NCBI RefSeq assembly: GCF_054482595.1
Contig: NZ_CM137008.1
Strand: one strand, 5' to 3'
Length of the DNA stretch: 64,000 nucleotides
The notes under the pieces were generated by a model, which worked only from the letters and a program-made list of their open reading frames with translations, searched no databases and was not told the DNA's origin. Every line of letters begins with the position of its first letter. The stretch's first letter is position 1. Of this stretch, positions 45,348-61,342 are shown piece by piece. The translations under genes and the position numbers were made by a program.

Positions 45348-46103
45348 TTGAGTGCGGGACGCCTGAATAAAAAATCTCTGGGTATCGTGATGTTGTTATC
45401 GGTTGGACTGCTTTTGGTGGGCTGTTCGGGTAGCAAATCATCCGATACAGGAACGTATTCCGGCTCCGTTTACACCGTGAAACGGGGGGATACGCTATAT
45501 CGTATTTCGCGCACCACGGGAACCAGCGTAAAAGAGCTGGCGCGACTGAACGGCATTTCCCCCCCTTACACCATTGAAGTTGGTCAGAAACTAAAACTGG
45601 GTGGGGCGAAAAGTAGCAGTAGTACACGTAAATCAACCGCCAAATCAACGACCAAAACCGCATCGGTTACACCGTCATCAGCGGTACCGAAATCTTCCTG
45701 GCCGCCAGTAGGGCAACGTTGTTGGTTATGGCCAACGACAGGGAAAGTTATCATGCCGTATTCGACAGCAGATGGCGGCAATAAAGGGATTGATATCTCA
45801 GCTCCACGGGGTACACCTATTTACGCCGCGGGTGCAGGAAAGGTGGTGTATGTGGGCAACCAGCTGCGTGGCTACGGTAATCTCATCATGATTAAACACA
45901 GTGAAGATTACATTACGGCTTACGCCCATAATGACACGATGCTGGTAAATAATGGGCAAAGCGTGAAGGCTGGGCAAAAAATCGCCACCATGGGGAGCAC
46001 GGATGCGGCATCTGTTCGCCTGCATTTCCAGATTCGTTACCGTGCAACGGCAATTGATCCGCTACGTTACTTGCCGCCGCAGGGCAGCAAGCCAAAATGC
46101 TGA
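45348..46103 (+). CDS. ygeR: LysM / M23-peptidase-family lipoprotein (amidase activator)
   Basis: Supplied ORF 45324-46103; probable TTG start at 45348 (LSAGRLNKKSLGIVMLLSVGLLLVGCSG lipobox), LysM and C-terminal M23-like domain. Confidence 0.88.
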   Translation: MSAGRLNKKSLGIVMLLSVGLLLVGCSGSKSSDTGTYSGSVYTVKRGDTLYRISRTTGTSVKELARLNGISPPYTIEVGQKLKLGGAKSSSSTRKSTAKSTTKTASVTPSSAVPKSSWPPVGQRCWLWPTTGKVIMPYSTADGGNKGIDISAPRGTPIYAAGAGKVVYVGNQLRGYGNLIMIKHSEDYITAYAHNDTMLVNNGQSVKAGQKIATMGSTDAASVRLHFQIRYRATAIDPLRYLPPQGSKPKC

Positions 46104-46136
46104 TGGCGAATTAATCAGCAGTCAGCAGCGCGGCAC

Positions 46137-46164
46137 TTGCTAAGGAGAGCGTAAGGTTTATAAT
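46137..46164 (+). promoter_or_regulatory. Candidate sigma-70 promoter of glyU
   Basis: TTGCTA (46137-46142), 16-nt spacer, TATAAT (46159-46164), about 18 nt upstream of the mature tRNA 5' end. Confidence 0.55.
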
Positions 46165-46181
46165 GCCTTACGCATCTCGAA

Positions 46182-46255
46182 GCGGGCGTAGTTCAATGGT
46201 AGAACGAGAGCTTCCCAAGCTCTATACGAGGGTTCGATTCCCTTCGCCCGCTCCA
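46182..46255 (+). tRNA. glyU: tRNA-Gly (anticodon CCC)
   Basis: 74 nt: 7-bp acceptor stem GCGGGCG/CGCCCGC, anticodon loop CTTCCCAAG, T-loop GGTTCGATTCC, 3' CCA encoded. Confidence 0.95.
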
Positions 46256-46344
46256 AAACTTCCCTAACGTATTCATTCCACTATCTTTTTCTAAACTATA
46301 CGTGACGGCGCTCGTGATCCTCCTACAAAGGGGTCATACAGCCG

Positions 46345-48288
46345 ATGTCGCAGCGTGATAATCTCTATCGCCGTCCAAGTGGTATCTATGTTCTTCGGAT
46401 CACTGTTCCGGTTCGTTATCGCGCCCTTATAGGGCAGCGTGAAATTCATGCATCTACCCGCACAACCCACCTTGCAAATGCCAGAGCTATTGCCGCGTGT
46501 TTGCTGGAGAAGTGGTATGCGTCTCTGGAAGAGTTCAGGCAAGTGGATAAAGAGAAGATCAGGGGCAATGCCCCATTGTTGACTGGCGCTGGCAAAATCA
46601 GCCTGGCGTTGTTTTGCGATTCATTTGGGGTTGGGGTTGAGACTGTCGTCCAGCATCTTCTGGCAGACAATGTGCCGCTGTATGCCCTTGTGTCGAACCA
46701 GCGTGGCTTTTTGATTGATGATTTCAGCACTCTTGAGCGTGATCCTGATACGCATGGGTTCGTTTTGACTAATATTGCGTATGACGGTGCTGAGGCTGCG
46801 GTGAACGGCTATATGCAGCTTTACCAGCCTCAGTTTGCCCTTGTTGAATTGCTGAACGGGCGAGAGGTTGAGGTTACGGCATTCAGGGCTAACAACGGCA
46901 ACCCTCTTTCCCTCTGGTTGTTGGATTTACCCGGGGTGACGCTGAATGCAAGTTCTTTGTTCATCAACAACGTGCAGGCTGAAAAACTGCGTTACGTCTG
47001 GGATAGCGCGCTTGCAGCATCGGAACCGACATCAACCACCCCACCAAAAGCGCCGACAGCGGCGCTTCCTGCGGCCGCTACTATCAACCCGTATTGTAAT
47101 CCGATGCATGCAAGCATGACGGTTTCAGCAGTTCTGGAAGAGTTTCTGGCCTATAAAAATACGGGTGATATCAAGTTAGCCAGTGAGGGGAAAATTCGTT
47201 CCAGAATCGAGCACTTTACGGAGATTATGGGTGATATGTCCTTAGGTGAGCTGGATCGTGAGGTCGTGAAGGATTACGTCAGTAGAATGCAGAAAATGCC
47301 CGGCAATCTGTATTTGATGCGGCGGAAATACAAGATTTCCGACACGCGAATGTTGATCGAAAGGGCGCTGGCTGATGGTCAGCCGGTAATGAGCCGGGAT
47401 GCGATTGGCAGGCATATTGAGTCACTGGGTTCGATGTTCAAATGGGCCAAGAAGGTGCGTTACCTGCTTGATAATCCAGCCGAGAATGTGCTCGCTCAGC
47501 GCCGCGTGATGGTGCGTGAGCAGGATCGCCGAGATCTCTTCACCGAGGATGAACTATTGCGTATTTTCTCTGCTGACTGGTTCAAAACTGGTGCCGGAAC
47601 ACCTAACCAATACGGACGTTACACGAGCTTTCGCCCGTTTCACTACTGGTTGCCCCTACTGGCATTATATGTGGGCGGGCGCATCAATGAGCTTTGCCAG
47701 CTTTATCTGGCGGACATTCGCGTGGATAAAAACGGTGTTGCCTATATTGATTTTAATCTTGATGCACCGGATAAGATGATGGATGAAGAGGCACTAGCCG
47801 GTGGCGATAAATCCTTGAAAACGGTGAATGCTATCCGTCAGGTTCCCCTACATCCACGACTGATCGAACTAGGGCTACTTGAGTATGTGGATGCGTTGAA
47901 AGCTGCCGGGTATGATCGTCTTTTCCCTGAGTTGAAGCATAATAAAATCAAAGGATATCGTGCCGCCGCCTCAAAATGGTTTAACGAAAACTACTTTGGC
48001 AAAGTCCTCGGTTTTACCCGTGACGGTAAGAAAACGTTCCATTCGCTGCGGCATACTTTCATCAACGCTGTTGACAAGTATGAGACCAACGAACGCACGA
48101 TTGCGCAGCTTGTTGGACATGTCCGGGGCAGCACTACTGCGATGACAACCTATCGTAAGGATGCTGATGTGGGAGAGCAATTGGACGTGATTTCGCAGCT
48201 TTGCTACAACTTGCCTGATATTGCGCAATTCGACTCGCAAGCGGGTATCAAGGCGGTCAGTGACGCACGGCGCAGACATAAATCGTGA
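46345..48288 (+). CDS. Tyrosine site-specific integrase with a long N-terminal extension (647 aa)
   Basis: Starts 90 bp after glyU; C-terminal region carries HSLRHTF and GHVRGSTTAMTTYRKD (catalytic His-x-x-Arg and Tyr motifs). Confidence 0.85.
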   Translation: MSQRDNLYRRPSGIYVLRITVPVRYRALIGQREIHASTRTTHLANARAIAACLLEKWYASLEEFRQVDKEKIRGNAPLLTGAGKISLALFCDSFGVGVETVVQHLLADNVPLYALVSNQRGFLIDDFSTLERDPDTHGFVLTNIAYDGAEAAVNGYMQLYQPQFALVELLNGREVEVTAFRANNGNPLSLWLLDLPGVTLNASSLFINNVQAEKLRYVWDSALAASEPTSTTPPKAPTAALPAAATINPYCNPMHASMTVSAVLEEFLAYKNTGDIKLASEGKIRSRIEHFTEIMGDMSLGELDREVVKDYVSRMQKMPGNLYLMRRKYKISDTRMLIERALADGQPVMSRDAIGRHIESLGSMFKWAKKVRYLLDNPAENVLAQRRVMVREQDRRDLFTEDELLRIFSADWFKTGAGTPNQYGRYTSFRPFHYWLPLLALYVGGRINELCQLYLADIRVDKNGVAYIDFNLDAPDKMMDEEALAGGDKSLKTVNAIRQVPLHPRLIELGLLEYVDALKAAGYDRLFPELKHNKIKGYRAAASKWFNENYFGKVLGFTRDGKKTFHSLRHTFINAVDKYETNERTIAQLVGHVRGSTTAMTTYRKDADVGEQLDVISQLCYNLPDIAQFDSQAGIKAVSDARRRHKS

Positions 48289-48461
48289 GATGTGCCAAAC
48301 GCGCCAGGAAGCTCTATGGCGCGTTTTTTATCAAGGGTAGTGGAAATCATGGTGCGGAATTTGCGGCGCTTTCGTAGCTCGACTGGCGCAGCTAGATGAA
48401 TCAGATGTAACCTTCAACAAGCAGCCTCTTTCGCAATATTTAAACAACTAGCGGAGTATGG

Positions 48462-48677
48462 ATGTTAATGGCGACCTACAGACAAATTGCCGATGATGTT
48501 AAATCCCGAACGGGGAGAACAGTCAAAACATGTTGGATAGCGCATGTTAAGTCATTGCATGGGCTAACCCGCCGCGTATCTCCAAACCGCATTAGCACCG
48601 AAAGCCGTGTTTATCCTTGCCCTGATAAATGGGTTGCGGAGATCGAGCAATCAATGAGAAATCTGGGCGAGCTTTAG
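48462..48677 (+). CDS. Small DNA-binding protein, possibly AlpA/excisionase-like
   Basis: 71-aa ORF downstream of the integrase; C-terminal KWVAEIEQSM resembles the AlpA-family W-x-x-E-I motif; weak assignment. Confidence 0.35.
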   Translation: MLMATYRQIADDVKSRTGRTVKTCWIAHVKSLHGLTRRVSPNRISTESRVYPCPDKWVAEIEQSMRNLGEL

Positions 48678-49035
48678 CTCTTTACTGCGCCGCTTAACTT
48701 TTGAGTCTGTTTGGCTCTATAAGGACTGTCTCGCCGCCACGGAAATTTTCGGACGCAATGCCTGAGAGGGAGCTTCCAAACCTAGGACTTCCACTTTCCC
48801 GCACCCAACTTATCCGGCTGCTTTTAACCGCGAACACGTTGAAGGTTAACAACGTTTAGTTCATGTCTGACTGAAAGGAACGGCCACCGACAAACACCGT
48901 TAGAGAAGGTATGTAAGCTGATAGTTGAGTTGCTATATATACAGTTATTAAGAGAACTGCACCCAGACCAGCAGGAATGCAGCTTCTTTCCTGCTGATTG
49001 TCACTTTTTTCTGGAATAAGGGAACGAGCGGTAGT

Positions 49036-50052
49036 TCAAACGTGGAGACGACGTAAGGCGCCCTTGACGGCGTTTTGCAGATCGCTAACAACCGCCAGAT
49101 GAGAGCTTTCTTTCCGCAGACGCTTGTCACCGTTGACCATCATCCAGCTACGTTTATCCCTACGCCCGATGTTATTGAATGAATGCAAGCCGCGCTCGGC
49201 TGTTGCGTCGTTCACCCTACGAACTGCGTTGATAGCGGTAAACCTGAACATATCACCGTTAGCCATCATTTCAGGCTCGATTGGTTTGCGAAATTTGAAC
49301 AGGTGAGCGAGGGTTTCAAATCGAAAGTGTTGTATGTCGTTAAGGCGGTTAAGAGAGTAGTGAGTGAGCACAGCACCTTTTAACGTGACTTCAACACGAG
49401 CGCGTTGCTTTTCTACAGGTAGTTTCTGACCGTCGTCAGTGCATTTGTGGTAGACATGCCACGAGATCTTGTCCCACTTGTTACCCGTTCTCAGGTTCCA
49501 TTCAGGATTGATACGAACATCCTGAACATCAAGGAAAACATTTTGTCGAGTTACGGGATTGTATTGTCGGGCTTTGGTTCCCGGACTGAACAGGGAACTT
49601 TGAAGCCGATAGGTCATCGCATTTGTAGCGGTAATCGACCGGGCTTTGTGCCAGAAATCGCAGAAGACTTCGACCCCCACAATTTGCGGCTCGTAAGCAA
49701 ATGGGAAACGATTTTGTAATTGGTCGAGGGCGGCTTCCAACTTCCCGTTATGGTTTGCTAGTAGATCGCGAAAGCGAATCCGAAAAACGTTGTTAGTGTT
49801 GCTTATGATGGGCTTTACCCAAGGTTTGACGTAGTTACCGGGACGGTGTTCGCACGATGCCAATTTTGAGATACGTAGACCGCAGGGTTCAACCCAGAGT
49901 TTTAATCCGGTGATTTTAAGTAATTCTTCCTGAACATAGCGATGCTGGGTCAGTCTAGATAAGCTGATCGTTATGTCCAGCCAGTCGATCCCGGCTGAGA
50001 CTTTAAAGAATTTGCGGTCTGCTTCGGCAGCTTTGCATTCTCGACTCTTCAT
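49036..50052 (-). CDS. Hypothetical protein, possibly YagK/YfjJ-like (inovirus Gp2-type replication-associated)
   Basis: 338-aa ORF; N-terminal GIDWLDITIS motif and placement beside integrase/AlpA-like genes as in CP4-57-type elements; assignment from memory only. Confidence 0.4.
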   Translation of the reverse strand: MKSRECKAAEADRKFFKVSAGIDWLDITISLSRLTQHRYVQEELLKITGLKLWVEPCGLRISKLASCEHRPGNYVKPWVKPIISNTNNVFRIRFRDLLANHNGKLEAALDQLQNRFPFAYEPQIVGVEVFCDFWHKARSITATNAMTYRLQSSLFSPGTKARQYNPVTRQNVFLDVQDVRINPEWNLRTGNKWDKISWHVYHKCTDDGQKLPVEKQRARVEVTLKGAVLTHYSLNRLNDIQHFRFETLAHLFKFRKPIEPEMMANGDMFRFTAINAVRRVNDATAERGLHSFNNIGRRDKRSWMMVNGDKRLRKESSHLAVVSDLQNAVKGALRRLHV

Positions 50053-50173
50053 AGTGTGGCCTTATTGAACGGAATCTCAAACTGCCATCAGGGTAATTCG
50101 AACTGAGCAGGTTTGAGAGCATTCGAGCAAGGTAGCATAACAATTTTAAGATAAAAACCTTACTTATCAACTA

Positions 50174-50198
50174 ACTGCGTTCATATTCTGAACGCAGT
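50174..50198. promoter_or_regulatory. Perfect 10-bp inverted repeat (candidate operator) in divergent intergenic region
   Basis: actgcgttca-tattc-tgaacgcagt between the YfjJ-like gene and the serine recombinase gene. Confidence 0.4.
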
Positions 50199-50355
50199 AG
50201 TCGTTGTTAACTTAAAGGCATGAGAACACTGTCGTTTTTCATATACAAAGGGTGCTTCGGCTCACCTGTAGCGATTCAGAGAAAGCACATGGTGCTATCT
50301 GGTAAAGCCGTCAGCCAGCCTAATATGTCTTACCACTTTTGAGCGCCAACAAACG

Positions 50356-50457
50356 ACCGTTTTCTGGCACCTTTCGATCGCACACTTTCACACTGTTGGA
50401 AAATTAGCCTTGGCTTTTCTGGCAGGCCATCCTAAGTTGACACCGTTTTCTGGCAGG
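50356..50457 (+). repeat. Three direct repeats of TTTTCTGGCA upstream of the serine recombinase gene
   Basis: ccgttttctggcac (50358-50370), gcttttctggcagg (50413-50426), ccgttttctggcagg (50444-50457); 20-125 bp upstream of the recombinase start. Confidence 0.45.
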
Positions 50458-50477
50458 GGCCGGAAGAGGAGATGACT

Positions 50478-51041
50478 ATGGCGATTTTTGGCTACGGGCG
50501 CGTTTCGACATCGCAGCAGGATACTGAGAACCAGCGTTTGGAACTTGAGCAAGCTGGATGGACTTTCGACTTTTGGTTTACTGATGTTGTTAGCGGGAAG
50601 GTTCCTGCGCTGCAACGCAAAGCGTTTTCCGAAATGCTCAGCAAAATCCGCGATGGTGAAACGCTGGTTGTTGCCAAACTCGACCGACTGGGACGCGATG
50701 CGATTGATGTTCTCCAGACTGTCAGGGCGATGGCCGAGCGTAATATCAAGGTCATTGTCCACCAGCTTGGCACAACGGATCTCTCCTCTGCTGCCGGTAA
50801 ACTTCTGTTGTCGATGCTGTCAGCAGTTGCGGAGATGGAACGTGACCTACTGATTGAGAGGACCCATGCGGGTTTGTTGCGGGCAAAAGCTGAAGGCAAG
50901 AAGCTGGGAAGACCGTCGAAAATCGCCCCAGAAGTCCATAGGCTGATTATTGAGAAAAAGAATAATGGAGCCAGTGTCAGCGCACTAGCGAGGGAGTATG
51001 GCGTTTCCAGAGCGACTATAGCTGCACTATTAGATTATTAG
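50478..51041 (+). CDS. Serine recombinase (resolvase / DNA-invertase family)
   Basis: Supplied ORF 50472-51041; N-terminal GYGRVSTSQQ catalytic-Ser motif, KLDRLGRD, C-terminal HTH; second ATG at 50478 has better SD spacing. Confidence 0.88.
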   Translation: MAIFGYGRVSTSQQDTENQRLELEQAGWTFDFWFTDVVSGKVPALQRKAFSEMLSKIRDGETLVVAKLDRLGRDAIDVLQTVRAMAERNIKVIVHQLGTTDLSSAAGKLLLSMLSAVAEMERDLLIERTHAGLLRAKAEGKKLGRPSKIAPEVHRLIIEKKNNGASVSALAREYGVSRATIAALLDY

Positions 51042-51127
51042 CAATTTAGATTTTTATTACAACTTCTGAATGGCAAGAGTGCTAATCTTGGAGAGTAAAA
51101 GCCCCCAAATGGGGGCTAAGTTAATAA

Positions 51128-52903
51128 CTAATAATGGACGTTTGCGATGAATTGAGGGAGAAGTTCTTTAAAATCATCTCTATACATATCCATATCACTC
51201 TGGAAACGAGAGATTATTTCTGTAATTTCTTTGCTTTTGGATAATCTTCCTGCTGTAGCTGGTTCTAACAGTGCAGATCTTGTTAATACCCTTTTTATTA
51301 CAGGGATCCATAACTCCTTCGCATTTTCTCTATTGACGCCATCTTTGAAGGATAATGAATATTTATTAGGTATCGCTGAACCTAATATTATTTCCAATAT
51401 GCTTGCTATAGCATGAATCATTAACAGTGATACGCCAGGTTGGGTCAATAGCTTATGTTTAATAGTATCTATTTCAGGAAGCTGGTTATGCCTAAATTGT
51501 TCATTAAAATCCGATTTTATCTGGCTTATAGCTTCATTTAAAGAATAGACAAAGATAATATGACCTAGAGTAATTGTATCATCAAAAGCCTTTTTATAGA
51601 GATCCTCATCATCCCAAATATCTTTTTTTCGATGATATGCACTTGTAGGATGAGCATGAAAAGCGATCAGGATTTGTGCAACTGTATCCGTTGGTAATAA
51701 AATTCTTTTTTGAGCCGGAGTTAACACTTGGCGAAGGCCACCTGTATATAAAGCTTCCTTATTTTTCTCGAAATCCTTTCTTAATCTTTTTTGTATAGAA
51801 TCACTGGAGCGAAAATCTGAGCGCAAGACCTTGTTTTGTGAATTATTCGCTAGAGTGATTTCATTAATTAGTTCGGGATTATTAACTCTTATGAACCTAA
51901 TTGCAACTCTTAGCGTATCATCTGGATCTTTCCCTAAATTTGAAATACTACCAGTAGTTTGAGCACCATTGACAATAGAAATACCAGTAACACTTTTAAT
52001 TTGACCGAGTGTTTTGGATTCGTCAATGAAATCAATTTCAAAATCATGGACTAAGGCAGTGATTCCGTTATTAAATACAAAGAAATTTCCTGGGTGTGTT
52101 TTAGCCGTGTTTTGTATTTCATTATTTATTGAGAGGTCTTTTTTATTACTTCCTAAATAAGACCTTACATTAGCGCTGAATAGTTTATCTTCACCGTAGC
52201 TATTATATAGTTCTTTAATAAATTTCCCTGGCATAAGGGTAGAAAATGAGGCCCAGTTTTCATTAGAGTTTTGATAAAAGCCATGCATACCAGTCAGCGA
52301 TATTTTATCTGATATCAAAATTGGACTGTGTTGAGAGTTATATAATTCATCAAGTGAACTTAAACCCATTTGCTTGGAGCTTATTCTCAGGTTATCAATA
52401 TGATAAATTGAGTTTAATTTGTCCATAATTGAACGCCCAATCGAATGTAAAGGTTTCTCACATTCTGGTGTTTCAGGGCAGTTATGAACAAACCATACAT
52501 TTATTTTCTCAATTTCATTATTTCTTAAAGCATCTCTTGCATCTTTTACCTGATCCCTTATCCTCAGAGGTATATTCTCTATATCAGCGGAAAGCAACGC
52601 GGTTTCTGCATAAGCTGTTTCTTGGGCCTTAGACGGCTTGGCCCCTTGAGGTCGAAATATAGTAGATTGATAAGATTGTATAAGATATATTTGTTTGCTT
52701 TCTCTATCGGTCATTAATATGTCTATATTTTCATCATCTCCCCCTTCAGTTATTATGTCGGGAGCTATCAATTCAATGCTGTCTATATTGTTATGTAACT
52801 CTATTGCATATAATGCACAATTTAAATTACCATATTTTTCTAGATCTTTTCTCTGTTGCAATGCTGACCAGAAAGAACTATCTGAAAGCTGTGTATATGT
52901 CAT
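51128..52903 (-). CDS. Hypothetical 591-aa protein, candidate abortive-infection (AIPR-like) phage-defence protein
   Basis: Long uninterrupted ORF in a visibly AT-rich segment with A/T-rich codon usage unlike flanking core genes; no Walker A motif; family assignment by size/context only. Confidence 0.6.
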   Translation of the reverse strand: MTYTQLSDSSFWSALQQRKDLEKYGNLNCALYAIELHNNIDSIELIAPDIITEGGDDENIDILMTDRESKQIYLIQSYQSTIFRPQGAKPSKAQETAYAETALLSADIENIPLRIRDQVKDARDALRNNEIEKINVWFVHNCPETPECEKPLHSIGRSIMDKLNSIYHIDNLRISSKQMGLSSLDELYNSQHSPILISDKISLTGMHGFYQNSNENWASFSTLMPGKFIKELYNSYGEDKLFSANVRSYLGSNKKDLSINNEIQNTAKTHPGNFFVFNNGITALVHDFEIDFIDESKTLGQIKSVTGISIVNGAQTTGSISNLGKDPDDTLRVAIRFIRVNNPELINEITLANNSQNKVLRSDFRSSDSIQKRLRKDFEKNKEALYTGGLRQVLTPAQKRILLPTDTVAQILIAFHAHPTSAYHRKKDIWDDEDLYKKAFDDTITLGHIIFVYSLNEAISQIKSDFNEQFRHNQLPEIDTIKHKLLTQPGVSLLMIHAIASILEIILGSAIPNKYSLSFKDGVNRENAKELWIPVIKRVLTRSALLEPATAGRLSKSKEITEIISRFQSDMDMYRDDFKELLPQFIANVHY

Positions 52904-53053
52904 GATAAAACCCTTTTTATTAATATGTAAATTTTATCTCATTCTATCTAAAATCATTTTTTTATATCTAATGATATAACATTAAATGTATGTGAAATAT
53001 TTAATGGTATCTGCTATGCCTTTGTTTATTAAAGCACAGTCTTCAAATCAGGG

Positions 53054-53161
53054 TCAACCAAACCACAGTATATTATATCCAACTATTGGATGTCGGTAAG
53101 CGACTAAGGCTAGTTGAGGTAACACATAAATAATACAATACCTTAGGGTATTGAGTTTCAT
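53054..53161 (-). CDS. Possible small ORF (35 aa, hydrophobic) with strong Shine-Dalgarno
   Basis: Minus-strand GAAGGAGGGACAGG-ATG...TGA encoding [35 protein letters not shown]; lies between IS2 and the 591-aa gene; several rare codons, so may be non-coding. Confidence 0.2.
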
Positions 53162-53289
53162 CCTGTCCCTCCTTCTACGAACGTATCCACGCAGCGACTA
53201 GACTGGCCCCCTGAATCTCCAGACAACCAATATCACTTATTTAAGTGATAGTCTTAATACTAGTTTTTAGACTAGTCATTGGAGAGCAG

Positions 53290-53655
53290 ATGATTGATGT
53301 CTTAGGACCGGAGAAACGCAGACGGCGTACTACACAGGAAAAGATCGCTATTGTTCAGCAGAGTTTTGAACCGGGAATGACAGTCTCCCTTGTTGCCCGG
53401 CAACACGGTGTGGCAGCCAGCCAGTTATTTCTCTGGCGCAAGCAATACCAGGAGGGAAGTCTTACTGCTGTGGCCGCAGGAGAACAGGTCGTTCCTGCCT
53501 CTGAACTTGCTGCCGCCATGAAGCAGATTAAAGAACTCCAGCGCCTGCTCGGCAAAAAAACGATGGAAAATGAACTCCTTAAAGAAGCCGTTGAATACGG
53601 GCGTGCAAAAAAGTGGATAGCGCACGCGCCCTTATTGCCCGGGGATGGGGAGTAA
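53290..53655 (+). CDS. insC: IS2 transposase OrfA
   Basis: [41 protein letters not shown], matches remembered IS2 InsC. Confidence 0.95.
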
Positions 53656-54518
53656 GCTTAGTCAGCCGTTGTCTCCGGGTGTCGCGTGCGCAGTTGCACG
53701 TCATTCTCAGACGAACCGATGACTGGAAAGATGGTCGCCGCAGCCGTCACTCAGATGATACGGATGTGCTTCTCCGTATACACCATGTTATCGGAGAGCT
53801 GCCCACATATGGTTATCGTCGGGTATGGGCGCTGCTTCGCAGACAGGCCGAACTTGATGGTATGCCTGCGATCAATGCCAAACGTATTTACCGGATCATG
53901 CGCCAGAATGCGCTGTTGCTTGAGCGAAAACCCGCTGTACCGCCATCGAAACGGGCACATACCGGCAGAGTGGCTGTGAAAGAAAGTAATCAGCGATGGT
54001 GCTCTGACGGGTTCGAGTTCCGCTGTGATAACGGAGAAAAACTGCGAGTCACGTTCGCGCTGGACTGCTGTGACCGTGAGGCACTGCACTGGGCGGTCAC
54101 TACGGGCGGCTTCAACAGTGAAACAGTACAGGACGTCATGCTGGGAGCGGTGGAACGCCGTTTCGGCAACGAGCTTCCGGCGTCTCCAGTAGAGTGGCTG
54201 ACGGATAATGGTTCATGCTACCGGGCTAATGAAACACGGCAGTTTGCCCGGATGTTGGGGCTTGAACCGAAGAACACGGCGGTGCGGAGTCCGGAGAGTA
54301 ACGGCATAGCAGAGAGCTTCGTGAAAACGATAAAGCGTGACTACATCAGTGTCATGCCCAAACCAGACGGGTTAACGGCAGCAAAGAACCTTGCAGAGGC
54401 ATTCGAGCATTATAACGAATGGCATCCGCATAGTGCACTGGGTTATCGCTCGCCACGGGAATATCTACGGCAGCAAGCCAGTAATGGGTTAAGTGATAAC
54501 AGGTGTCTGGAAATATAG
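53613..54518 (+). CDS. insD: IS2 transposase OrfB (DDE integrase domain)
   Basis: 301-aa ORF overlapping insC in the -1 frame, matches remembered IS2 InsD. Confidence 0.95.
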
Positions 54519-54640
54519 GGGCAAATCCAGCGACTTCTTGAGCTTCGCCTGAAAAATTTGAAACCATGCGCTTGATGAGAATTGCATCTAGGTTACATTT
54601 GTGGGAACAGATCGTTGCTAGGGTAGCTATAAAATAAAAA

Positions 54641-55393
54641 TTATAATTTATTCATGCAGTTAGTGTAAATGAATGCCGCTGAAACCTGAGCATCTTGCTT
54701 GGGGTGTTCATATACATAGTCAACGAAGGTTTTATAGAGCGCAATCATCTGGGGTGTGACTTCGGACTTGCCATTCATATTATCGAGACGCTGATAATAG
54801 TCTGCTTTGGTCATTCCTCCGTTTCGGCCTTTGGTTACGTTTGCGGTGAATTGTGCTATACCCATACACATTTGATCTTTATGGTTATTCGTTTTATCCG
54901 GGTGAAGAGCACCTTCCAACACTTTATCACCGCTGATGGCATGTTGCGCCCACGCTGAATTGTTGGCGATAAACTTTTTGGAGCCGGTGGCAATACCGTA
55001 TTCGATGCGAATGCCATTATCGTGATAGCTACCGTCAGCATCTTTAGTCGCTAACTTTAGAGATATGCGGCAACCGGGGAGCGTTTTGTGTTCTTGCACC
55101 GAAGCAATAACGGTGTCTGTATCGCAATCAGCAAAGCTGTATGTGGGATTAACATAGGTATTCGTTTTGAGTAGTAACCCGGTTAAGCCGTTTTTATAGC
55201 CTTTTGCCGGTAGGGTTTTAAAGGCGTTACGGTCGCCATCCTTAATCGCTTCCCGAAACTGATCCATCCCAATGCGGATTGCCAGTTGATCGATGCTCTC
55301 GGCTGCATATGATGCAGATGATGTAGCGATTAATATGATGCTCAGCAAAAACTTGGCTGGAAAAACGGGTTTAATAATTCGTGTTTGTGACAT
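54641..55393 (-). CDS. Secreted protein of unknown function (signal peptide)
   Basis: Supplied ORF 54641-55492; probable start MSQTRIIKPVFPAKFLLSIILIATSSASYAAE (55393) with AAGGA SD; predicted signal peptide cleavage near SYA-AE; several Cys. Confidence 0.6.
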   Translation of the reverse strand: MSQTRIIKPVFPAKFLLSIILIATSSASYAAESIDQLAIRIGMDQFREAIKDGDRNAFKTLPAKGYKNGLTGLLLKTNTYVNPTYSFADCDTDTVIASVQEHKTLPGCRISLKLATKDADGSYHDNGIRIEYGIATGSKKFIANNSAWAQHAISGDKVLEGALHPDKTNNHKDQMCMGIAQFTANVTKGRNGGMTKADYYQRLDNMNGKSEVTPQMIALYKTFVDYVYEHPKQDAQVSAAFIYTNCMNKL

Positions 55394-55510
55394 GTTGTTA
55401 TCCTTCAGAATCCACCCCTGCGGTGATTTTAATCGCATGATAACGCTTTGATTCAAAATGTCACTATTGGAGCGTGGCTCTTTAGTGGACATCTAATCAA
55501 ATTCAGGAGG

Positions 55511-55975
55511 ATGAAAAAGACCCTTCGATTTTTATTTGGACAACGTGTTAAGGCTCTACGTATAGCCGCCGGAATGAGCCAGGAAGCGTTTGCTGATCGG
55601 TGTGGATTTGCGCGTAGCTATATGAGCCGCATTGAACGTGGTTGCTCTAACGCGTCTCTTGATGCGATTGAGGTATTGGCTGAAGCTTTAAGTGTTGAGC
55701 CTTGGCAATTGTTAGCGTCCGATTCTTCCGAAGATAGCGCCCCGGAATTGTTGGTTCCATACGCGGCCGATGGCTCGTGCTTTCATCCCGGACTAGCGAG
55801 CACGCGCGATGGTTCGTTTGGTGTAGGTGATAAAGCCGCTCAGAAGCGTTTTGGCTCGTTTTTAGAAGCATTAGAGTATCTACGTAACATGAAGACAGCA
55901 AAATGGCGCAGACCCAATTCTAGCGGCAACTGGGGTATCGTATCAGCGGTTCGTTGGGACAAGCTGAGAAAGTAG
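55511..55975 (+). CDS. HTH (XRE-family) transcriptional regulator with C-terminal domain of unknown function
   Basis: Supplied ORF 55448-55975; start at 55511 (AGGAGG + ATG); N-terminal LRIAAGMSQEAFADRCGFARSYMSRIERG helix-turn-helix; about 80-aa uncharacterised C-terminal extension. Confidence 0.75.
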   Translation: MKKTLRFLFGQRVKALRIAAGMSQEAFADRCGFARSYMSRIERGCSNASLDAIEVLAEALSVEPWQLLASDSSEDSAPELLVPYAADGSCFHPGLASTRDGSFGVGDKAAQKRFGSFLEALEYLRNMKTAKWRRPNSSGNWGIVSAVRWDKLRK

Positions 55976-56150
55976 CTCAGGTGTAAGTTTCAGATTTTAA
56001 ATTACTGAATAAATAAACAGCTACCACATGAGGTGAATGGCCGCACGTTTTATCTGGCACTGATAACTATCAGCATTCCTAAAACACCAAAATACGGGTG
56101 CGTTACGTAGGCGTTACAGTGGCGTTTCACTTCAGCAATGGAGAGTGCTT

Positions 56151-57023
56151 TTGAAAAATAATCATTTGATATCATATGGTTTCCTAACCTCGCTGAGTGA
56201 TATTGAATTACTGTCGCTTCACTCCGAAATTTTAACGCAGTTGCGTTTTAGAGGTGTCATTCGCACCAAGAATAATCCTGTTGGTGACTATGCTGAATGG
56301 CTGGTTTCTAATGCACTGGGTATGACTCTTCTCAGTAATTCGTCGGCGGGTGCTGATGCCATTGATGCTGATGGCCTGAAAGTGCAGATCAAAGCTAGGA
56401 GAGTTACGCCGGATAATCCTTCCCGGCAGCTTAGTGCCTTGCGTAACTATGAGGCAGCCGAATTTGATTATTTAATCGCGGTTATTTTCGATGAGACTTA
56501 CAACATTCTTGATGCTTACAAAATCCCACATGAAGTAATACGAGATTATGCACGGCATAGTGACCACGTTAACGCACATATCGTTAACCTCAAGGGCGCG
56601 ATTCTTACTGATCCCCGAGTTAGTTCCATCAAAGAAGACTTGATTGTCAGGAGTTCGGCTTCAGTCAATGAAGCGGCTATGCAAACCCTTCCACCCGAAC
56701 CTATGGAAGAGGTTTTGAATCAACCAGAGAAGATAACGAGTAGTGTTACCTTGGTCAGCCTCCTTAAGGCTATCGGGATGGAGTGCTTTGTAAACTACTA
56801 CCATCATTTTGCCGATTCAAATTTATCAAGCGCTGATATCATTGAGCAAATGCACTCACGTGAGGGTTACACAGAGAAAAGTTGCCGGGGCCGTCTCAGT
56901 AAAGCGCGAAAAGTGATCAGGGATGGTTTAAGTATTGAGGCTTTGACGTTGATCGCTGACTCTGGGCGAATACAAGATTCTGTCAGAAGTGACGCGCTAA
57001 AACTTATCAGCGTTCTGGAGTGA
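56151..57023 (+). CDS. Hypothetical protein with Mrr-like (PD-(D/E)xK) nuclease motif
   Basis: Supplied ORF 56145-57023 (GTG); TTG at 56151 has GGAGAG SD; residues about 47-87 GDYAEWLVSNALGMTLLSNSSAGADAIDADGLKVQIKARRV fit the Mrr-cat pattern (Asp cluster then Q-x-K); C-terminal about 150 aa unassigned. Confidence 0.6.
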   Translation: MKNNHLISYGFLTSLSDIELLSLHSEILTQLRFRGVIRTKNNPVGDYAEWLVSNALGMTLLSNSSAGADAIDADGLKVQIKARRVTPDNPSRQLSALRNYEAAEFDYLIAVIFDETYNILDAYKIPHEVIRDYARHSDHVNAHIVNLKGAILTDPRVSSIKEDLIVRSSASVNEAAMQTLPPEPMEEVLNQPEKITSSVTLVSLLKAIGMECFVNYYHHFADSNLSSADIIEQMHSREGYTEKSCRGRLSKARKVIRDGLSIEALTLIADSGRIQDSVRSDALKLISVLE

Positions 57024-57076
57024 AGCGGTTTGCAAAACGTTGTAGTTCCTCCTACAAAACCCTCCTACAATGCACC

Positions 57077-57539
57077 GGTAATGACTCCAACTTATTGATA
57101 GTGTTTTATGTTCAGATAATGCCCGATGACTTTGTCATGCAGCTCCACCGATTTTGAGAACGACAGCGACTTCCGTCCCAGCCGTGCCAGGTGCTGCCTC
57201 AGATTCAGGTTATGCCGCTCAATTCGCTGCGTATATCGCTTGCTGATTACGTGCAGCTTTCCCTTCAGGCGGGATTCATACAGCGGCCAGCCATCCGTCA
57301 TCCATATCACCACGTCAAAGGGTGACAGCAGGCTCATAAGACGCCCCAGCGTCGCCATAGTGCGTTCACCGAATACGTGCGCAACAACCGTCTTCCGGAG
57401 CCTGTCATACGCGTAAAACAGCCAGCGCTGGCGCGATTTAGCCCCGACGTATCCCCACTGTTCGTCCATTTCCGCGCAGACGATGACGTCACTGCCCGGC
57501 TGTATGCGCGAGGTTACCGACTGCGGCCTGAGTTTTTTA
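57077..57539 (-). mobile_element. IS1 remnant (about 463 bp, truncated by IS26)
   Basis: Begins with IS1 terminal repeat GGTAATGACTCCAACTTATTGATAGTG; encodes the C-terminal part of InsB (supplied ORF 57092-57586); IS1 sequence stops at the IS26 end. Confidence 0.9.
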
Positions 57540-58359
57540 GGCACTGTTGCAAAGTTAGCGATGAGGCAGCCTTTTGTCTTATTCAAAGGCCTTACATTTC
57601 AAAAACTCTGCTTACCAGGCGCATTTCGCCCAGGGGATCACCATAATAAAATGCTGAGGCCTGGCCTTTGCGTAGTGCACGCATCACCTCAATACCTTTG
57701 ATGGTGGCGTAAGCCGTCTTCATGGATTTAAATCCCAGCGTGGCGCCGATTATCCGTTTCAGTTTGCCATGATCGCATTCAATCACGTTGTTCCGGTACT
57801 TAATCTGTCGGTGTTCAACGTCAGACGGGCACCGGCCTTCGCGTTTGAGCAGAGCAAGCGCGCGACCATAGGCGGGCGCTTTATCCGTGTTGATGAATCG
57901 CGGGATCTGCCACTTCTTCACGTTGTTGAGGATTTTACCCAGAAACCGGTATGCAGCTTTGCTGTTACGACGGGAGGAGAGATAAAAATCGACAGTGCGG
58001 CCCCGGCTGTCGACGGCCCGGTACAGATACGCCCAGCGGCCATTGACCTTCACGTAGGTTTCATCCATGTGCCACGGGCAAAGATCGGAAGGGTTACGCC
58101 AGTACCAGCGCAGCCGTTTTTCCATTTCAGGCGCATAACGCTGAACCCAGCGGTAAATCGTGGAGTGATCGACATTCACTCCGCGTTCAGCCAGCATCTC
58201 CTGCAGCTCACGGTAACTGATGCCGTATTTGCAGTACCAGCGTACGGCCCACAGAATGATGTCACGCTGAAAATGCCGGCCTTTGAATGGGTTCATGTGC
58301 AGCTCCATCAGCAAAAGGGGATGATAAGTTTATCACCACCGACTATTTGCAACAGTGCC
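57540..58359 (-). mobile_element. IS26 (IS6 family), copy 1
   Basis: 820 bp bounded by GGCACTGTTGCAAA terminal inverted repeats (57540 and 58346-58359); carries tnp26. Confidence 0.95.
57592..58296 (-). CDS. tnpA: IS26 transposase Tnp26
   Basis: Supplied ORF 57592-58314; start [31 protein letters not shown] (234 aa). Confidence 0.95.
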
Positions 58360-58461
58360 TCCTTTTTGATAATCTCATGACCAAAATCCCTTAACGTGAG
58401 TTTTCGTTCCACTGAGCGTCAGACCCCGTATAGTGTTTTGCAGTTTAGAGGAGATATCGCG

Positions 58462-59322
58462 ATGCATACGCGGAAGGCAATAACGGAGGCGCTTCAAAAA
58501 CTCGGAGTCCAAACCGGTGACCTCTTGATGGTGCATGCCTCACTTAAAGCGATTGGTCCGGTCGAAGGAGGAGCGGAGACGGTCGTTGCCGCGTTACGCT
58601 CCGCGGTTGGGCCGACTGGCACTGTGATGGGATACGCGTCGTGGGACCGATCACCCTACGAGGAGACTCTGAATGGCGCTCGGCTGGATGACGAAGCCCG
58701 CCGTACCTGGCTGCCGTTCGATCCCGCAACAGCCGGGACTTACCGTGGGTTCGGCCTGCTGAATCAATTTCTGGTTCAAGCCCCCGGCGCGCGGCGCAGC
58801 GCGCACCCCGATGCATCGATGGTCGCGGTTGGTCCGCTGGCTGAAACGCTGACGGAGCCTCACGAACTCGGTCACGCCTTGGGGGAAGGATCGCCCGTCG
58901 AGCGGTTCGTTCGCCTTGGCGGGAAGGCCCTGCTGTTGGGTGCGCCGCTAAACTCCGTTACCGCATTGCACTACGCCGAGGCGGTTGCCGATATCCCCAA
59001 CAAACGGTGGGTGACGTATGAGATGCCGATGCTTGGAAGAGACGGTGAAGTCGCCTGGAAAACGGCATCGGATTACGATTCAAACGGCATTCTCGATTGC
59101 TTTGCTATCGAAGGAAAGCCGGATGCGGTTGAAACTATAGCAAATGCTTACGTGAAGCTCGGTCGCCATCGAGAAGGTGTCGTGGGCTTTGCTCAGTGCT
59201 ACCTGTTCGACGCGCAGGACATCGTGACGTTCGGCGTCACCTATCTTGAGAAGCATTTCGGAACCACTCCGATCGTGCCTCCGCACGAGGCCGTCGAGCG
59301 CTCTTGCGAGCCTTCAGGTTAG
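58462..59322 (+). CDS. aac(3)-II: Aminoglycoside N(3)-acetyltransferase, AAC(3)-II type (gentamicin/tobramycin resistance)
   Basis: Supplied ORF 58396-59322; from MHTRKAITEALQKLGVQTGDLLMVHASLKAIGPVEGG matches remembered AAC(3)-IIa/IId (286 aa); sub-variant not resolvable by eye. Confidence 0.9.
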   Translation: MHTRKAITEALQKLGVQTGDLLMVHASLKAIGPVEGGAETVVAALRSAVGPTGTVMGYASWDRSPYEETLNGARLDDEARRTWLPFDPATAGTYRGFGLLNQFLVQAPGARRSAHPDASMVAVGPLAETLTEPHELGHALGEGSPVERFVRLGGKALLLGAPLNSVTALHYAEAVADIPNKRWVTYEMPMLGRDGEVAWKTASDYDSNGILDCFAIEGKPDAVETIANAYVKLGRHREGVVGFAQCYLFDAQDIVTFGVTYLEKHFGTTPIVPPHEAVERSCEPSG

Positions 59323-59334
59323 AGGCCGTCGACA

Positions 59335-59547
59335 ATGATAATCTGGATCAACGGACCTTTCGGCGCCGGAAAGACGACGCTCGCTAAGCGGCTGCGCGAT
59401 CGGCGTTCCAAATCGCTGATCTTTGACCCCGAGGAAATCGGGTTCGTGGTGAAAGAAACGGTCCCCATGCCAGCGAGCGGAGACTATCAGGATCTCCCCT
59501 TGTGGAGGGGACTTACGATCGCGGCGGTCAGGGAGATTCGAAGGAAT
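59335..59547 (+). pseudogene. tmrB: Truncated tunicamycin-resistance gene tmrB (5' part only, cut by IS26)
   Basis: MIIWINGPFGAGKTTLAKRL P-loop N-terminus; reading frame runs into the IS26 terminal repeat at 59548. Confidence 0.8.
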
Positions 59548-60367
59548 GGCACTGTTGCAAATAGTCGGTGGTGATAAACTTATCATCCCCTTTTGCTGAT
59601 GGAGCTGCACATGAACCCATTCAAAGGCCGGCATTTTCAGCGTGACATCATTCTGTGGGCCGTACGCTGGTACTGCAAATACGGCATCAGTTACCGTGAG
59701 CTGCAGGAGATGCTGGCTGAACGCGGAGTGAATGTCGATCACTCCACGATTTACCGCTGGGTTCAGCGTTATGCGCCTGAAATGGAAAAACGGCTGCGCT
59801 GGTACTGGCGTAACCCTTCCGATCTTTGCCCGTGGCACATGGATGAAACCTACGTGAAGGTCAATGGCCGCTGGGCGTATCTGTACCGGGCCGTCGACAG
59901 CCGGGGCCGCACTGTCGATTTTTATCTCTCCTCCCGTCGTAACAGCAAAGCTGCATACCGGTTTCTGGGTAAAATCCTCAACAACGTGAAGAAGTGGCAG
60001 ATCCCGCGATTCATCAACACGGATAAAGCGCCCGCCTATGGTCGCGCGCTTGCTCTGCTCAAACGCGAAGGCCGGTGCCCGTCTGACGTTGAACACCGAC
60101 AGATTAAGTACCGGAACAACGTGATTGAATGCGATCATGGCAAACTGAAACGGATAATCGGCGCCACGCTGGGATTTAAATCCATGAAGACGGCTTACGC
60201 CACCATCAAAGGTATTGAGGTGATGCGTGCACTACGCAAAGGCCAGGCCTCAGCATTTTATTATGGTGATCCCCTGGGCGAAATGCGCCTGGTAAGCAGA
60301 GTTTTTGAAATGTAAGGCCTTTGAATAAGACAAAAGGCTGCCTCATCGCTAACTTTGCAACAGTGCC
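59548..60367 (+). mobile_element. IS26 (IS6 family), copy 2, inverted relative to copy 1
   Basis: 820 bp bounded by GGCACTGTTGCAAA repeats (59548 and 60354-60367); transposase protein identical to copy 1. Confidence 0.95.
59611..60315 (+). CDS. tnpA: IS26 transposase Tnp26
   Basis: Supplied ORF 59593-60315, same protein as 57592-58296 on the opposite strand. Confidence 0.95.
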   Translation: MNPFKGRHFQRDIILWAVRWYCKYGISYRELQEMLAERGVNVDHSTIYRWVQRYAPEMEKRLRWYWRNPSDLCPWHMDETYVKVNGRWAYLYRAVDSRGRTVDFYLSSRRNSKAAYRFLGKILNNVKKWQIPRFINTDKAPAYGRALALLKREGRCPSDVEHRQIKYRNNVIECDHGKLKRIIGATLGFKSMKTAYATIKGIEVMRALRKGQASAFYYGDPLGEMRLVSRVFEM

Positions 60368-60436
60368 GGATTGAATATAACCGACGTGACTGTTACATTT
60401 AGGTGGCTAAACCCGTCAAGCCCTCAGGAGTGAATC

Positions 60437-61342
60437 ATGACCGTAGTCACGACCGCCGATACCTCCCAACTGTACGCACTTGCAGCCCGACATGGGCTCA
60501 AGCTCCATGGCCCGCTGACTGTCAATGAGCTTGGGCTCGACTATAGGATCGTGATCGCCACCGTCGACGATGGACGTCGGTGGGTGCTGCGCATCCCGCG
60601 CCGAGCCGAGGTAAGCGCGAAGGTCGAACCAGAGGCGCGGGTGCTGGCAATGCTCAAGAATCGCCTGCCGTTCGCGGTGCCGGACTGGCGCGTGGCCAAC
60701 GCCGAGCTCGTTGCCTATCCCATGCTCGAAGACTCGACTGCGATGGTCATCCAGCCTGGTTCGTCCACGCCCGACTGGGTCGTGCCGCAGGACTCGGAGG
60801 TCTTCGCGGAGAGCTTCGCGACCGCGCTCGCCGCCCTGCATGCCGTCCCCATTTCCGCCGCCGTGGATGCGGGGATGCTCATCCGTACACCGACGCAGGC
60901 CCGTCAGAAGGTGGCCGACGACGTTGACCGCGTCCGACGCGAGTTCGTGGTGAACGACAAGCGCCTCCACCGGTGGCAGCGCTGGCTCGACGACGATTCG
61001 TCGTGGCCAGATTTCTCCGTGGTGGTGCATGGCGATCTCTACGTGGGCCATGTGCTCATCGACAACACGGAGCGCGTCAGCGGGATGATCGACTGGAGCG
61101 AGGCCCGCGTTGATGACCCTGCCATCGACATGGCCGCGCACCTTATGGTCTTTGGTGAAGAGGGGCTCGCGAAGCTCCTCCTCACGTATGAAGCGGCCGG
61201 TGGCCGGGTGTGGCCGCGGCTCGCCCACCACATCGCGGAGCGCCTTGCGTTCGGGGCGGTCACCTACGCACTCTTCGCCCTCGACTCGGGTAACGAAGAG
61301 TACCTCGCTGCGGCGAAGGCGCAGCTCGCCGCAGCGGAATGA
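60437..61342 (+). CDS. mph(A): Macrolide 2'-phosphotransferase Mph(A)
   Basis: 301-aa ORF MTVVTTADTSQLYALAARHGLKLHGPLTVNELGLDYRIV matches remembered Mph(A); high-GC segment. Confidence 0.93.
   Translation: MTVVTTADTSQLYALAARHGLKLHGPLTVNELGLDYRIVIATVDDGRRWVLRIPRRAEVSAKVEPEARVLAMLKNRLPFAVPDWRVANAELVAYPMLEDSTAMVIQPGSSTPDWVVPQDSEVFAESFATALAALHAVPISAAVDAGMLIRTPTQARQKVADDVDRVRREFVVNDKRLHRWQRWLDDDSSWPDFSVVVHGDLYVGHVLIDNTERVSGMIDWSEARVDDPAIDMAAHLMVFGEEGLAKLLLTYEAAGGRVWPRLAHHIAERLAFGAVTYALFALDSGNEEYLAAAKAQLAAAE

Follow-up and report, generated by a model that had tools for sequence, protein, structure and literature searches.

A putative Rep_trans-type nickase and an adjacent candidate nick site in small tRNA-integrated islands of Beta- and Gammaproteobacteria

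Many small genomic islands of Enterobacteria and Burkholderia encode an integrase but no recognizable gene for replication or transfer, and their spread is unexplained (PMC5704250, PMC11389934). The same question, namely, what could allow such an element to replicate or move, is raised by an island in a 64,000-nucleotide (nt) stretch of an Escherichia coli chromosome (contig NZ_CM137008.1 of assembly GCF_054482595.1), here called the window, in which xdhA, actS and a tRNA-Gly(CCC) gene at 46182-46255 are followed by the island, with genes for a tyrosine integrase, a small protein and a 338-amino-acid (aa) protein. A first-pass annotation of this sequence tentatively took the two open reading frames (ORFs) next to the integrase for AlpA- and YagK/YfjJ-like components of a CP4-57/P4-type backbone forming an excision/replication module. 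Our analysis supports neither of these assignments, with the larger protein appearing to be a divergent nickase of the Rep_trans superfamily that is accompanied by a candidate cutting site next to its gene.

A divergent Rep_trans-like protein

The gene for the putative nickase (49036-50052, minus strand), which we call Rep-like on the grounds of homology, residue mapping and a structural model, is present next to the integrase as the first-pass annotation indicated, but it is convergent with both the integrase gene and the small ORF rather than co-directional. The sequence GIDWLDITIS that was noted near the N-terminus occupies residues 21-30 and is a real family motif, with D23 invariant and W24 conserved in at least 90% of the family. 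The close family consists of 80 cluster representatives from Enterobacteria, Pseudomonas and Burkholderia, and an exhaustive search with the family profile recovered 957 cluster representatives at E ≤ 0.001. Judged by sequence, both this ORF and the small one are genuine genes rather than chance ORFs.

Among 67 diverse relatives of the protein, Rep_trans (PF02486) was the sole recurring Pfam match, detected in 19 of the 67 at E ≤ 0.1, with the best match at 3.1e-7. In hhalign comparisons, RepC of plasmid pT181 was aligned with E 0.006, or 0.0018 when a shallow RepC alignment was used, which gained little because the RepC homologues listed were all at least 81% identical. Searched against PDB sequences, the broad profile retrieved RepSTK1 as the sole match (E 0.56); the close-family profile found nothing relevant among the same sequences, and PADLOC and PHROGs returned nothing useful for the 338-aa protein. 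Although each of these sequence results is weak alone, the RepSTK1 alignment and the RepC comparison yield an identical residue mapping, in which Y201/K203 correspond to the catalytic Y179/K181 of RepSTK1 and Y191/K193 of RepC, R219/E221 correspond to R194/E196 of RepSTK1 and R212/E214 of RepC, and N186/R188/G190 map to the T-x-Y-x-G strand. The family motif x-x-Y201-x-K203 aligns with R-x-Y(catalytic)-x-K, and R219-x-E221 with R-x-E; from the motif spacing, we read E128-x-A-x-D132 as the probable counterpart of D-x-A-x-D, position 128 being glutamate in the family versus the canonical aspartate (D142). The roles of the catalytic residues in Rep_trans enzymes have been described by Carr et al. 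2016 (PMC4797284).

Eight residues, D23, E128, D132, Y201, K203, R217, R219 and E221, are invariant in all 55 of the 55 clade members and fall into four conserved blocks (D23 in IDWLD; E128/D132 in IEVxCDF; Y201-x-K203; R217-A-R219-x-E221), with Tyr201 as the putative nucleophile and E128, D132, K203, R217, R219 and E221 as a putative acidic/basic cluster. A confident AlphaFold model obtained from 55 homologues (pLDDT 86.6, pTM 0.83) predicts the crescent-shaped catalytic fold of RepDE and RepSTK1. The modelled catalytic sheet begins at residue 16, with no N-terminal helix-turn-helix (HTH) domain, and the C-terminal 110 residues are mostly helical; plasmid Reps carry their DNA-binding domain C-terminally (PMC4797284). 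From these results together, we conclude that the 338-aa protein belongs to the Rep_trans superfamily as a divergent member that retains the active site but falls under the Pfam family threshold.

A candidate nick site next to the Rep-like gene

Short words common to the non-coding DNA around the Rep-like gene and around distant loci yielded the motif C[CT]TA[AT]TAACT. Its one match in the window (0.25 expected) is CTTAATAACT, at 48943-48952 on the minus strand. The motif occurs exactly once in 20 of the 20 loci bearing a member of the clade (window included), on the Rep strand and 78-93 nt past the stop codon. It is retained at 40-48% Rep identity, where the flanking DNA is not alignable, and is present across elements with five integration targets (tRNA-Gly, tRNA-Leu, tRNA-Thr, tRNA-Met and tmRNA), which argues that the motif goes with the Rep gene and not with the integrase specificity. 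The 13 fetched loci without a match include every locus lacking a Rep-like gene except pT181 (L031 in our numbering of the compared loci), where the single match, probably a chance one, falls in the mobV gene on the opposite strand. In a distant clade (L035-L037), the motif falls within the 3' end of the Rep-like gene itself.

A CT'AA core is common to the nic sites in the transfer origins (oriT) of MOBT relaxases and to Rep_trans origins (Laroussi et al. 2022, PMC9371924). The motif detected here includes this core and has CTAATA(A/G)C in common with the region nicked in pT181, CTACTCTAATAGCCGG; from this resemblance and from the conservation of the motif, we infer that it is nicked and where the cut would lie. 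Upstream of the motif on its strand, 26-38 nt past the Rep stop, the alignment revealed a conserved A6 tract together with GTGACAA (48998-49010, minus strand), which as G[TG]GACAA is found in 9 of 13 loci and, as noted by analogy, resembles the TGTCAC consensus of the MOBT binding site (PMC9371924). An inverted repeat, CAGCAGGAA/TTCCTGCTG (48969-48996), also separates the Rep stop codon from the candidate nick site. A hairpin occupies the same place in the Burkholderia loci L004 and L021, with a different stem sequence, and is weak or absent in eight other loci. Given that this hairpin is significant in just 3 of 11 loci, we do not claim it as a family feature.

On the other side of the gene, about 90 nt upstream of the Rep start, a promoter-like site, TTGATA-16-TAAAAT (50143-50170, minus strand), was recognized by consensus match alone (10 of 12 positions). 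A perfect 10-bp inverted repeat, ACTGCGTTCA-N5-TGAACGCAGT (50174-50198), adjoins its -35 hexamer. This repeat is exact in six loci and degraded in L023 and L024 without compensating changes, with no covariation; considered as an origin, it was rejected because of this degradation and because it adjoins the promoter-like site, and it is a possible operator instead.

As a separate observation, a distant 399-aa Rep-like relative in locus L032 has the motif 52 nt past its stop codon, on the opposite strand. The gene for this relative adjoins an imuA/imuB/dnaE2-like mutagenesis cassette (L032 2729-9793).

A family of small integrative islands

In the window, the tRNA-Gly(CCC) gene (glyU, plus strand), identified by ARAGORN and Rfam and the sole match in an Rfam scan of the window, is the integration target, and its 3' end represents the left attachment repeat, TTCCCTTCGCCCGCTCCAA (46238-46256). 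It is followed by the gene for the 647-aa tyrosine integrase (46345-48288, plus strand), which contains an N-terminal DUF6538 (Pfam, 1.9e-9) and a Phage_integrase domain (4.6e-8) and matches PHROG 1 (integrase) at 2.9e-35. Beyond the Rep-like gene and divergent from the Rep operon, there is a gene for a 189-aa small serine recombinase of the resolvase/invertase type (50472-51041, plus strand; Pfam Resolvase, 3.7e-36; PHROG DNA invertase, 8.8e-58). The conserved core of the family consists of these components, a tRNA or tmRNA gene, the DUF6538 integrase, the Rep-like gene and the serine recombinase, in an order that is seen in L003, L004, L007, L013-L021, L023-L025 and L035. Twelve independent loci carry the core genes, in Citrobacter, Phytobacter, Enterobacter, Serratia, Pseudomonas, Burkholderia, Paraburkholderia, Parasulfuritortus and Azonexus, and the integrase homologue adjoins a tRNA or tmRNA gene in L004, L014-L019 and L021.

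All complete elements examined combine the Rep-like gene with the serine recombinase gene, which is divergent from the Rep operon, and a distant relative, P0184 (L035 clade), repeats the trio of resolvase, Rep and integrase. In L004 (6328-8906) and L018 (7505-10930), the block of serine recombinase, small genes and Rep is inverted relative to the integrase and the attachment (att) site. Preceding the Rep-like gene, there are one or two small genes, encoding a DUF1643 protein in Enterobacteria and 164-aa and 115-aa proteins elsewhere; the Burkholderia 164-aa protein was considered as a divergent DUF1643, a candidate that was rejected as no similarity was found. The DUF1643 gene of L007 is intact (155 aa, PF07799 at 1.5e-41), whereas that of the window is a 99-bp remnant comprising the 3' end only (50207-50305, minus strand), as indicated by a tblastn search and by the pseudogene annotated by PGAP in the identical island of E. 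coli THO-010. The serine recombinase gene is closely preceded by three direct copies of TTTTCTGGCA (50356-50457, plus strand), which are kept in L007 and L013 and form a candidate res site or operator.

The Burkholderia-type elements contain a conserved imperfect palindrome upstream of the recombinase gene (L004 6999-7158, L014, L016, L017, L019 and L021), for example, GGCCTCAC-N18-GTGAGGCC with the conserved core ACGAACGTTTAATGTGAGG, which might serve as a site for recombination or as an operator.

Direct repeats of 18-19 bp are located at the island ends in L001, L023-L025 and L004. In E. coli THO-010, ET745, ABWA45 and 15A, 18-19 bp of the tRNA-Gly 3' end flank islands of 8.8-10.1 kb that differ in cargo at three places, and in Burkholderia vietnamiensis, a 19-bp tmRNA repeat flanks a minimal element of about 5 kb with six genes. 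An integrase combined with direct repeats at a tRNA or tmRNA gene, as expected of an integrative element, is thus found in the relatives, and the window has the left repeat alone. Judged by sequence, the elements are small integrative islands (5-10 kb) of Beta- and Gammaproteobacteria. Most of the 5-kb core is contained in only 16 of the 5,426 complete E. coli genomes. None of the loci examined has a gene for a coupling protein, no type IV secretion genes are present in the 5-10 kb elements, and coat, assembly or Zot-like genes were detected in none of the loci. A DNA search of a phage collection gave no match and a scan of viral contigs gave a single locus, so that a prophage origin is unsupported.

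Apart from the islands, an IS1-flanked fragment that includes the Rep-like gene and the 3' motif is found on about 30 plasmids of E. coli, Salmonella, Shigella and Klebsiella. Three of these plasmids (L002, L005 and L006) are typed IncHI1B/MOBH, with the fragment adjoining the mobI/mobH region, and in L002 and L005, it also retains an intact DUF1643 gene and the serine recombinase gene.

The island of the window, integrated at the 3' end of tRNA-Gly(CCC) and about 10 kb long by our sequence comparison, matches that of THO-010 up to 53 bp past the DUF6998 gene near its right end, where a truncated IS1 and an IS26 region follow. This junction precedes the point where THO-010 has its right attachment repeat (attR), which accounts for the absence of attR from the window. 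With the right end lost to the IS1/IS26 region and DUF1643 reduced to a remnant, the island may no longer move as a unit. In E. coli Santai (O157:H16; NZ_CP007592.1) and SM107 (NZ_CP130667.1), the two island halves (46100-51100 versus 52800-57540) match on opposite strands, which implies an inversion relative to the window that probably took place between IS copies.

An accessory small protein

Between the integrase gene and the candidate origin lies the small gene, for which the first-pass annotation gave 71 aa. The ORF is there, but the start at 48468 is preferable, since all 56 aligned homologues begin with MATY or MxTY and the upstream ATG at 48462 is not conserved, resulting in a gene for a conserved 69-aa protein (48468-48677, plus strand). 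The family includes 83 cluster representatives, nearly all of 68-72 aa, and the codon changes between island variants are mostly synonymous (12-17, versus 3-8 non-synonymous). The protein is basic and predicted to form three helices in an HTH-like arrangement, and across Pfam, NCBIfam, PADLOC and PHROGs, it has a sole match, PHROG 27283 of unknown function (9e-19).

In seven enterobacterial loci (window, L001, L013, L014 and L023-L025), the small gene is located between the integrase gene and the candidate origin, convergent with the Rep gene and about 270 bp from the candidate nick site. Its product keeps 90-97% identity, including at loci where identity falls to 46% for Rep and 39% for the integrase. 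L007 lacks the gene, as do all of the Burkholderia and Pseudomonas elements compared. Outside these islands, family members are found alone among the head genes of a Providencia prophage, next to MazEF, next to a type IIG restriction-modification gene, bordering another island, and in plain chromosomal settings; one relative adjoins another integrase. Judged by its sequence, the gene is genuine but accessory and has no constant partner gene. Its product may plausibly bind DNA, but an excisionase role is not supported, given that the gene belongs to the variable part of the island and that the family is found elsewhere without an integrase partner.

A possible mechanism

We propose that the island is an integrative episome that is excised by its integrase and replicated by the Rep_trans-type nickase from the adjacent 3' motif, a reading that, resting on sequence and modelling, we hold at a probability of roughly 0.55. 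Under this model, the integrase would excise the island as a circle via the tRNA-derived direct repeats. The Rep-like protein would then bind its own origin just 3' of its gene and nick the Rep-coding strand within C[CT]TA[AT]TAACT (48943-48952 in the window), using Tyr201 as the nucleophile and E128, D132 and E221 to hold a divalent metal. The free 3'-OH would prime rolling-circle replication of the excised circle, producing a plasmid-like episome, and the serine recombinase would resolve multimers at a site in its own upstream region, possibly the three TTTTCTGGCA repeats. A helper element could also use the displaced single strand for transfer. In this scheme, replication and the part played by the recombinase are predicted; what is observed is the fold and the conserved residues of the protein, the invariant motif next to its gene, the linkage of the genes and, in relatives, the att repeats.

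Several observations weigh against this proposal. The 338-aa protein itself has no Pfam or NCBIfam match at E ≤ 1, and the three PF02486 matches of relatives that were inspected score 14-19.5 bits, below the gathering score of 29.6; the hhalign probabilities of just 6-15% and the E of 0.56 for the PDB match are likewise weak. Two canonical residues are replaced, R189 by Gln or His (family position 199) and Y178 by Arg (position 188). In the wider superfamily, the Tyr201 column contains Tyr in 49, Met in 14 and Gln in 4 of the 67 sequences; the relatives with Met or Gln retain the other active-site residues invariant and may represent a subgroup that is inactive or wired differently, or else reflect an artefact of the alignment. 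The motif reads CTAT instead of CTAA in L018 and L020, it is not consistently in a hairpin loop, and the hairpin beside it is significant only in the window (z -2.3), L004 (-2.4) and L021 (-2.2) among the 11 loci. Finally, a second copy of the tRNA 3' end was not found within the 64-kb window.

Alternative explanations

The Rep-like protein could instead act mainly as a MOBT-like conjugative relaxase, which would make the island an integrative mobilizable element that uses the 3' motif as oriT and borrows the mating apparatus of a co-resident plasmid or integrative and conjugative element (ICE). Rep_trans relatives indeed act as relaxases of ICEs and integrative mobilizable elements (IMEs) in Firmicutes, with the same CT'AA nick core, the elements described here are small (5-10 kb) and carry an integrase without transfer genes of their own, and the fragments with Rep and the motif on large plasmids adjoin mobI/mobH regions. 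However, those plasmid copies are IS1-flanked fragments, the protein lacks the N-terminal HTH of the kind that MOBT relaxases need, and MOBT relaxases are reported from Firmicutes alone, with FtsK/TcpA-like coupling proteins, whereas none of our loci encodes a coupling protein. The co-conserved resolvase also suits plasmid-like maintenance better. The plasmid-Rep-like architecture, the constant resolvase linkage and the lack of an encoded coupling protein thus favour replication over a pure relaxase, a role that we regard as unlikely. Replication and mobilization might also be combined, as in Tn916 and ICEBs1. In a more far-reaching reading, which we consider less likely than not, these small tRNA-targeting islands, often with anti-phage cargo, would be the first family of Rep_trans/MOBT-type 'hitcher' elements in Proteobacteria. 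Once excised, they would produce single-stranded copies by means of their own nickase and a CT'AA-type origin, and a conjugative plasmid or a filamentous phage would act as the helper that exports these copies.

A different issue is whether the module in the window is still active. It might be a relic, with intact genes but no more excision or replication as a unit, an outcome to which we give somewhat less than even odds. The missing attR, the IS1/IS26 resistance region that cuts the island, the DUF1643 remnant, the IS2 copy in the cargo and the rarity of the core among complete E. coli genomes all agree with decay. Conversely, the integrase, Rep and recombinase genes and the candidate origin are intact and the same as in THO-010, which has both att repeats, attR could lie past the end of the window, and the DUF1643 remnant is common to several island variants that still have both repeats. 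As for the 69-aa protein, a role as a directionality factor or origin accessory protein outside the AlpA family, excisionase- or relaxosome-like, would fit its near-constant sequence and its position between the integrase and the candidate origin in seven loci, its basic, HTH-like character and the relative beside another integrase. We nevertheless find such a role doubtful in view of its absence from L007 and all Burkholderia and Pseudomonas members and of the relatives that are lone genes in a prophage head cluster, near MazEF, near a restriction-modification gene or in ordinary chromosome. The CP4-57/P4 reading of the first-pass annotation, with the small ORF as the AlpA excision regulator and the 338-aa protein as YagK/YfjJ (inovirus Gp2-type), is highly improbable. 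To be sure, the small ORF follows an integrase, its size and basic charge fit a small DNA-binding protein, and the large protein, as the Gp2-type proteins, is functionally related to rolling-circle initiators. However, with the genuine CP4-57 genes of E. coli K-12 (AlpA, YfjJ and IntA) as positive controls, the small protein had no match to AlpA (PF05930) at E ≤ 1 versus 6.9e-24 for genuine AlpA, and the AlpA-like C-terminal motif attributed to it could not be substantiated, hhalign of a 57-sequence alignment with K-12 AlpA giving a probability of 0.1%. The 338-aa protein had no match to YagK/YfjJ (PF11726) and an hhalign probability of 0.06% against K-12 YfjJ, versus 1.1e-63 for genuine YfjJ, which also matches Pfam REP_ORF2-G2P (replication-associated protein ORF2/G2P). 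The window integrase consists of DUF6538 and Phage_integrase, without Arm-DNA-bind_3 and Phage_int_M, which were both matched, together with Phage_integrase, in the IntA control. With no profile matches, hhalign probabilities of at most 0.1% and a different integrase domain composition, the AlpA, YfjJ and P4-type labels are unsupported. What survives of the original excision/replication module is an integrative element with a replication-initiator-type protein beside the integrase; an excisionase part for the small ORF is unsupported.

Cargo and resistance region

The remaining features of the island and its surroundings can be outlined briefly. Right after the integrase stop codon, there is a terminator-like hairpin (48297-48332, plus strand) in which a perfect stem of 10 bp encloses a 10-nt loop and a T run is also present; a simple terminator scan skipped it because its loop is above the size limit of the scan. 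The cargo region (51128-57023) contains an AIPR/AbiU-like gene with a GC content of 0.33 (51128-52903, minus strand; PADLOC AbiU, 1.7e-29), a C-protein-like HTH gene (55448-55975) and a DUF6998 gene that resembles a methyl-directed type II restriction enzyme (56145-57023; 5.3e-70). Going by these sequence matches, the cargo resembles anti-phage defence genes. Between the AIPR gene and a gene for a 283-aa protein, there is an IS2 insertion (about 53245-54518; TnpB match to PRK09409, 3.7e-214) that is not present in the otherwise identical THO-010 island.

An IS26-bounded resistance region (57077-64000) takes the place of the right end of the island. It starts with a sequence at 57077-57539 that we read as a truncated IS1 end, on the basis of an IS1B annotation under matching sequence, and that is cut by IS26 starting at 57540, as delineated by the THO-010 alignment and the IS26 terminal repeats. 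This IS26 (57540-58359) is followed by aac(3)-II (58396-59322), a second IS26 (59548-60367), mph(A) (60437-61342), an mrx-like gene of the MFS type (61339-62577), an mphR-like ORF of 194 aa (62577-63161) and a third IS26 end at 63600.

Implications and comparison with known systems

If the proposed reading holds, a widespread unannotated family of 957 cluster representatives can now be read as Rep_trans-like nickases, with a specific 10-nt candidate cutting site beside each Rep-like gene and a conserved core of three enzymes, integrase, nickase and resolvase. Islands of 'hypothetical proteins' gain a testable model in this way, and annotation pipelines could recognize them. The 'hitcher' reading, if true, would provide a concrete transfer mechanism for small genomic islands of unexplained mobility. 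Given the abortive-infection- and restriction-like cargo and the IS26 resistance region that landed in the island of the window, the family bears on how both defence and resistance genes move. In the literature searched, Rep_trans enzymes on integrated elements are described solely from Firmicutes, there was no mention of DUF6538, and GI-glyU is merely named in a list in one preprint. The islands differ from these Firmicutes elements in host phylum, sequence, origin position, partner genes and the lack of the MOBT HTH.

Like CP4-57/P4-like elements, with their IntA, AlpA and YfjJ, the island is small, is located at a tRNA or tmRNA gene, has anti-phage cargo, and places small genes and a rolling-circle-initiator-like protein after the integrase; unlike them, it lacks all three marker families, and YfjJ is of the YagK_YfjJ_C and REP_ORF2-G2P type, whereas the protein described here appears to belong to the non-HUH Rep_trans lineage. 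The Reps of filamentous phages and satellites (Phage_CRI and Rep_trans type) show some likeness as well, with weak structural matches to Inoviridae proteins (E 8e-5 to 2e-4), and Rep_trans-like motifs were noted in the Phage_Cri family by Carr et al. (PMC4797284). However, the TM-scores are low (0.26-0.38), and the islands have their own tyrosine integrase and target tRNA genes.

The pT181-family Reps (RepC, RepD and RepSTK1; PF02486) share with the 338-aa protein the catalytic Tyr-x-Lys, Arg-x-Glu and acidic x-A-x-D arrangement, the helical C-terminal region, where those Reps hold their origin-binding domain, and, in the adjacent conserved site, the CTAATA(A/G)C of the pT181 nick region. They differ in that the window protein has no Pfam match and carries the changes D142 to Glu, R189 to Gln or His and Y178 to Arg, in that the candidate origin lies 3' of the gene rather than inside its 5' part as in pT181, and in the setting, a proteobacterial integrating island with its own tyrosine integrase versus a small plasmid. 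The MOBT relaxases of the ICESt3/Tn916/ICEBs1 superfamily and the streptococcal Rep_trans IMEs resemble the present system in combining a Rep_trans-type enzyme with a tyrosine integrase on an integrated element and in the CT'AA-type core of the cis site. The N-terminal HTH of MOBT relaxases is needed for oriT binding (PMC9371924), whereas in the window protein, no such domain is modelled and residue 16 begins the first conserved strand (IDWLD). The islands also lack a TcpA/FtsK-like coupling protein and type IV secretion genes, reside in Proteobacteria rather than Firmicutes, and pair the enzyme with a small serine recombinase and, in Enterobacteria, also with DUF1643. The MOBT/Rep_trans relatives have a documented dual role in replication and transfer (PMC9371924).

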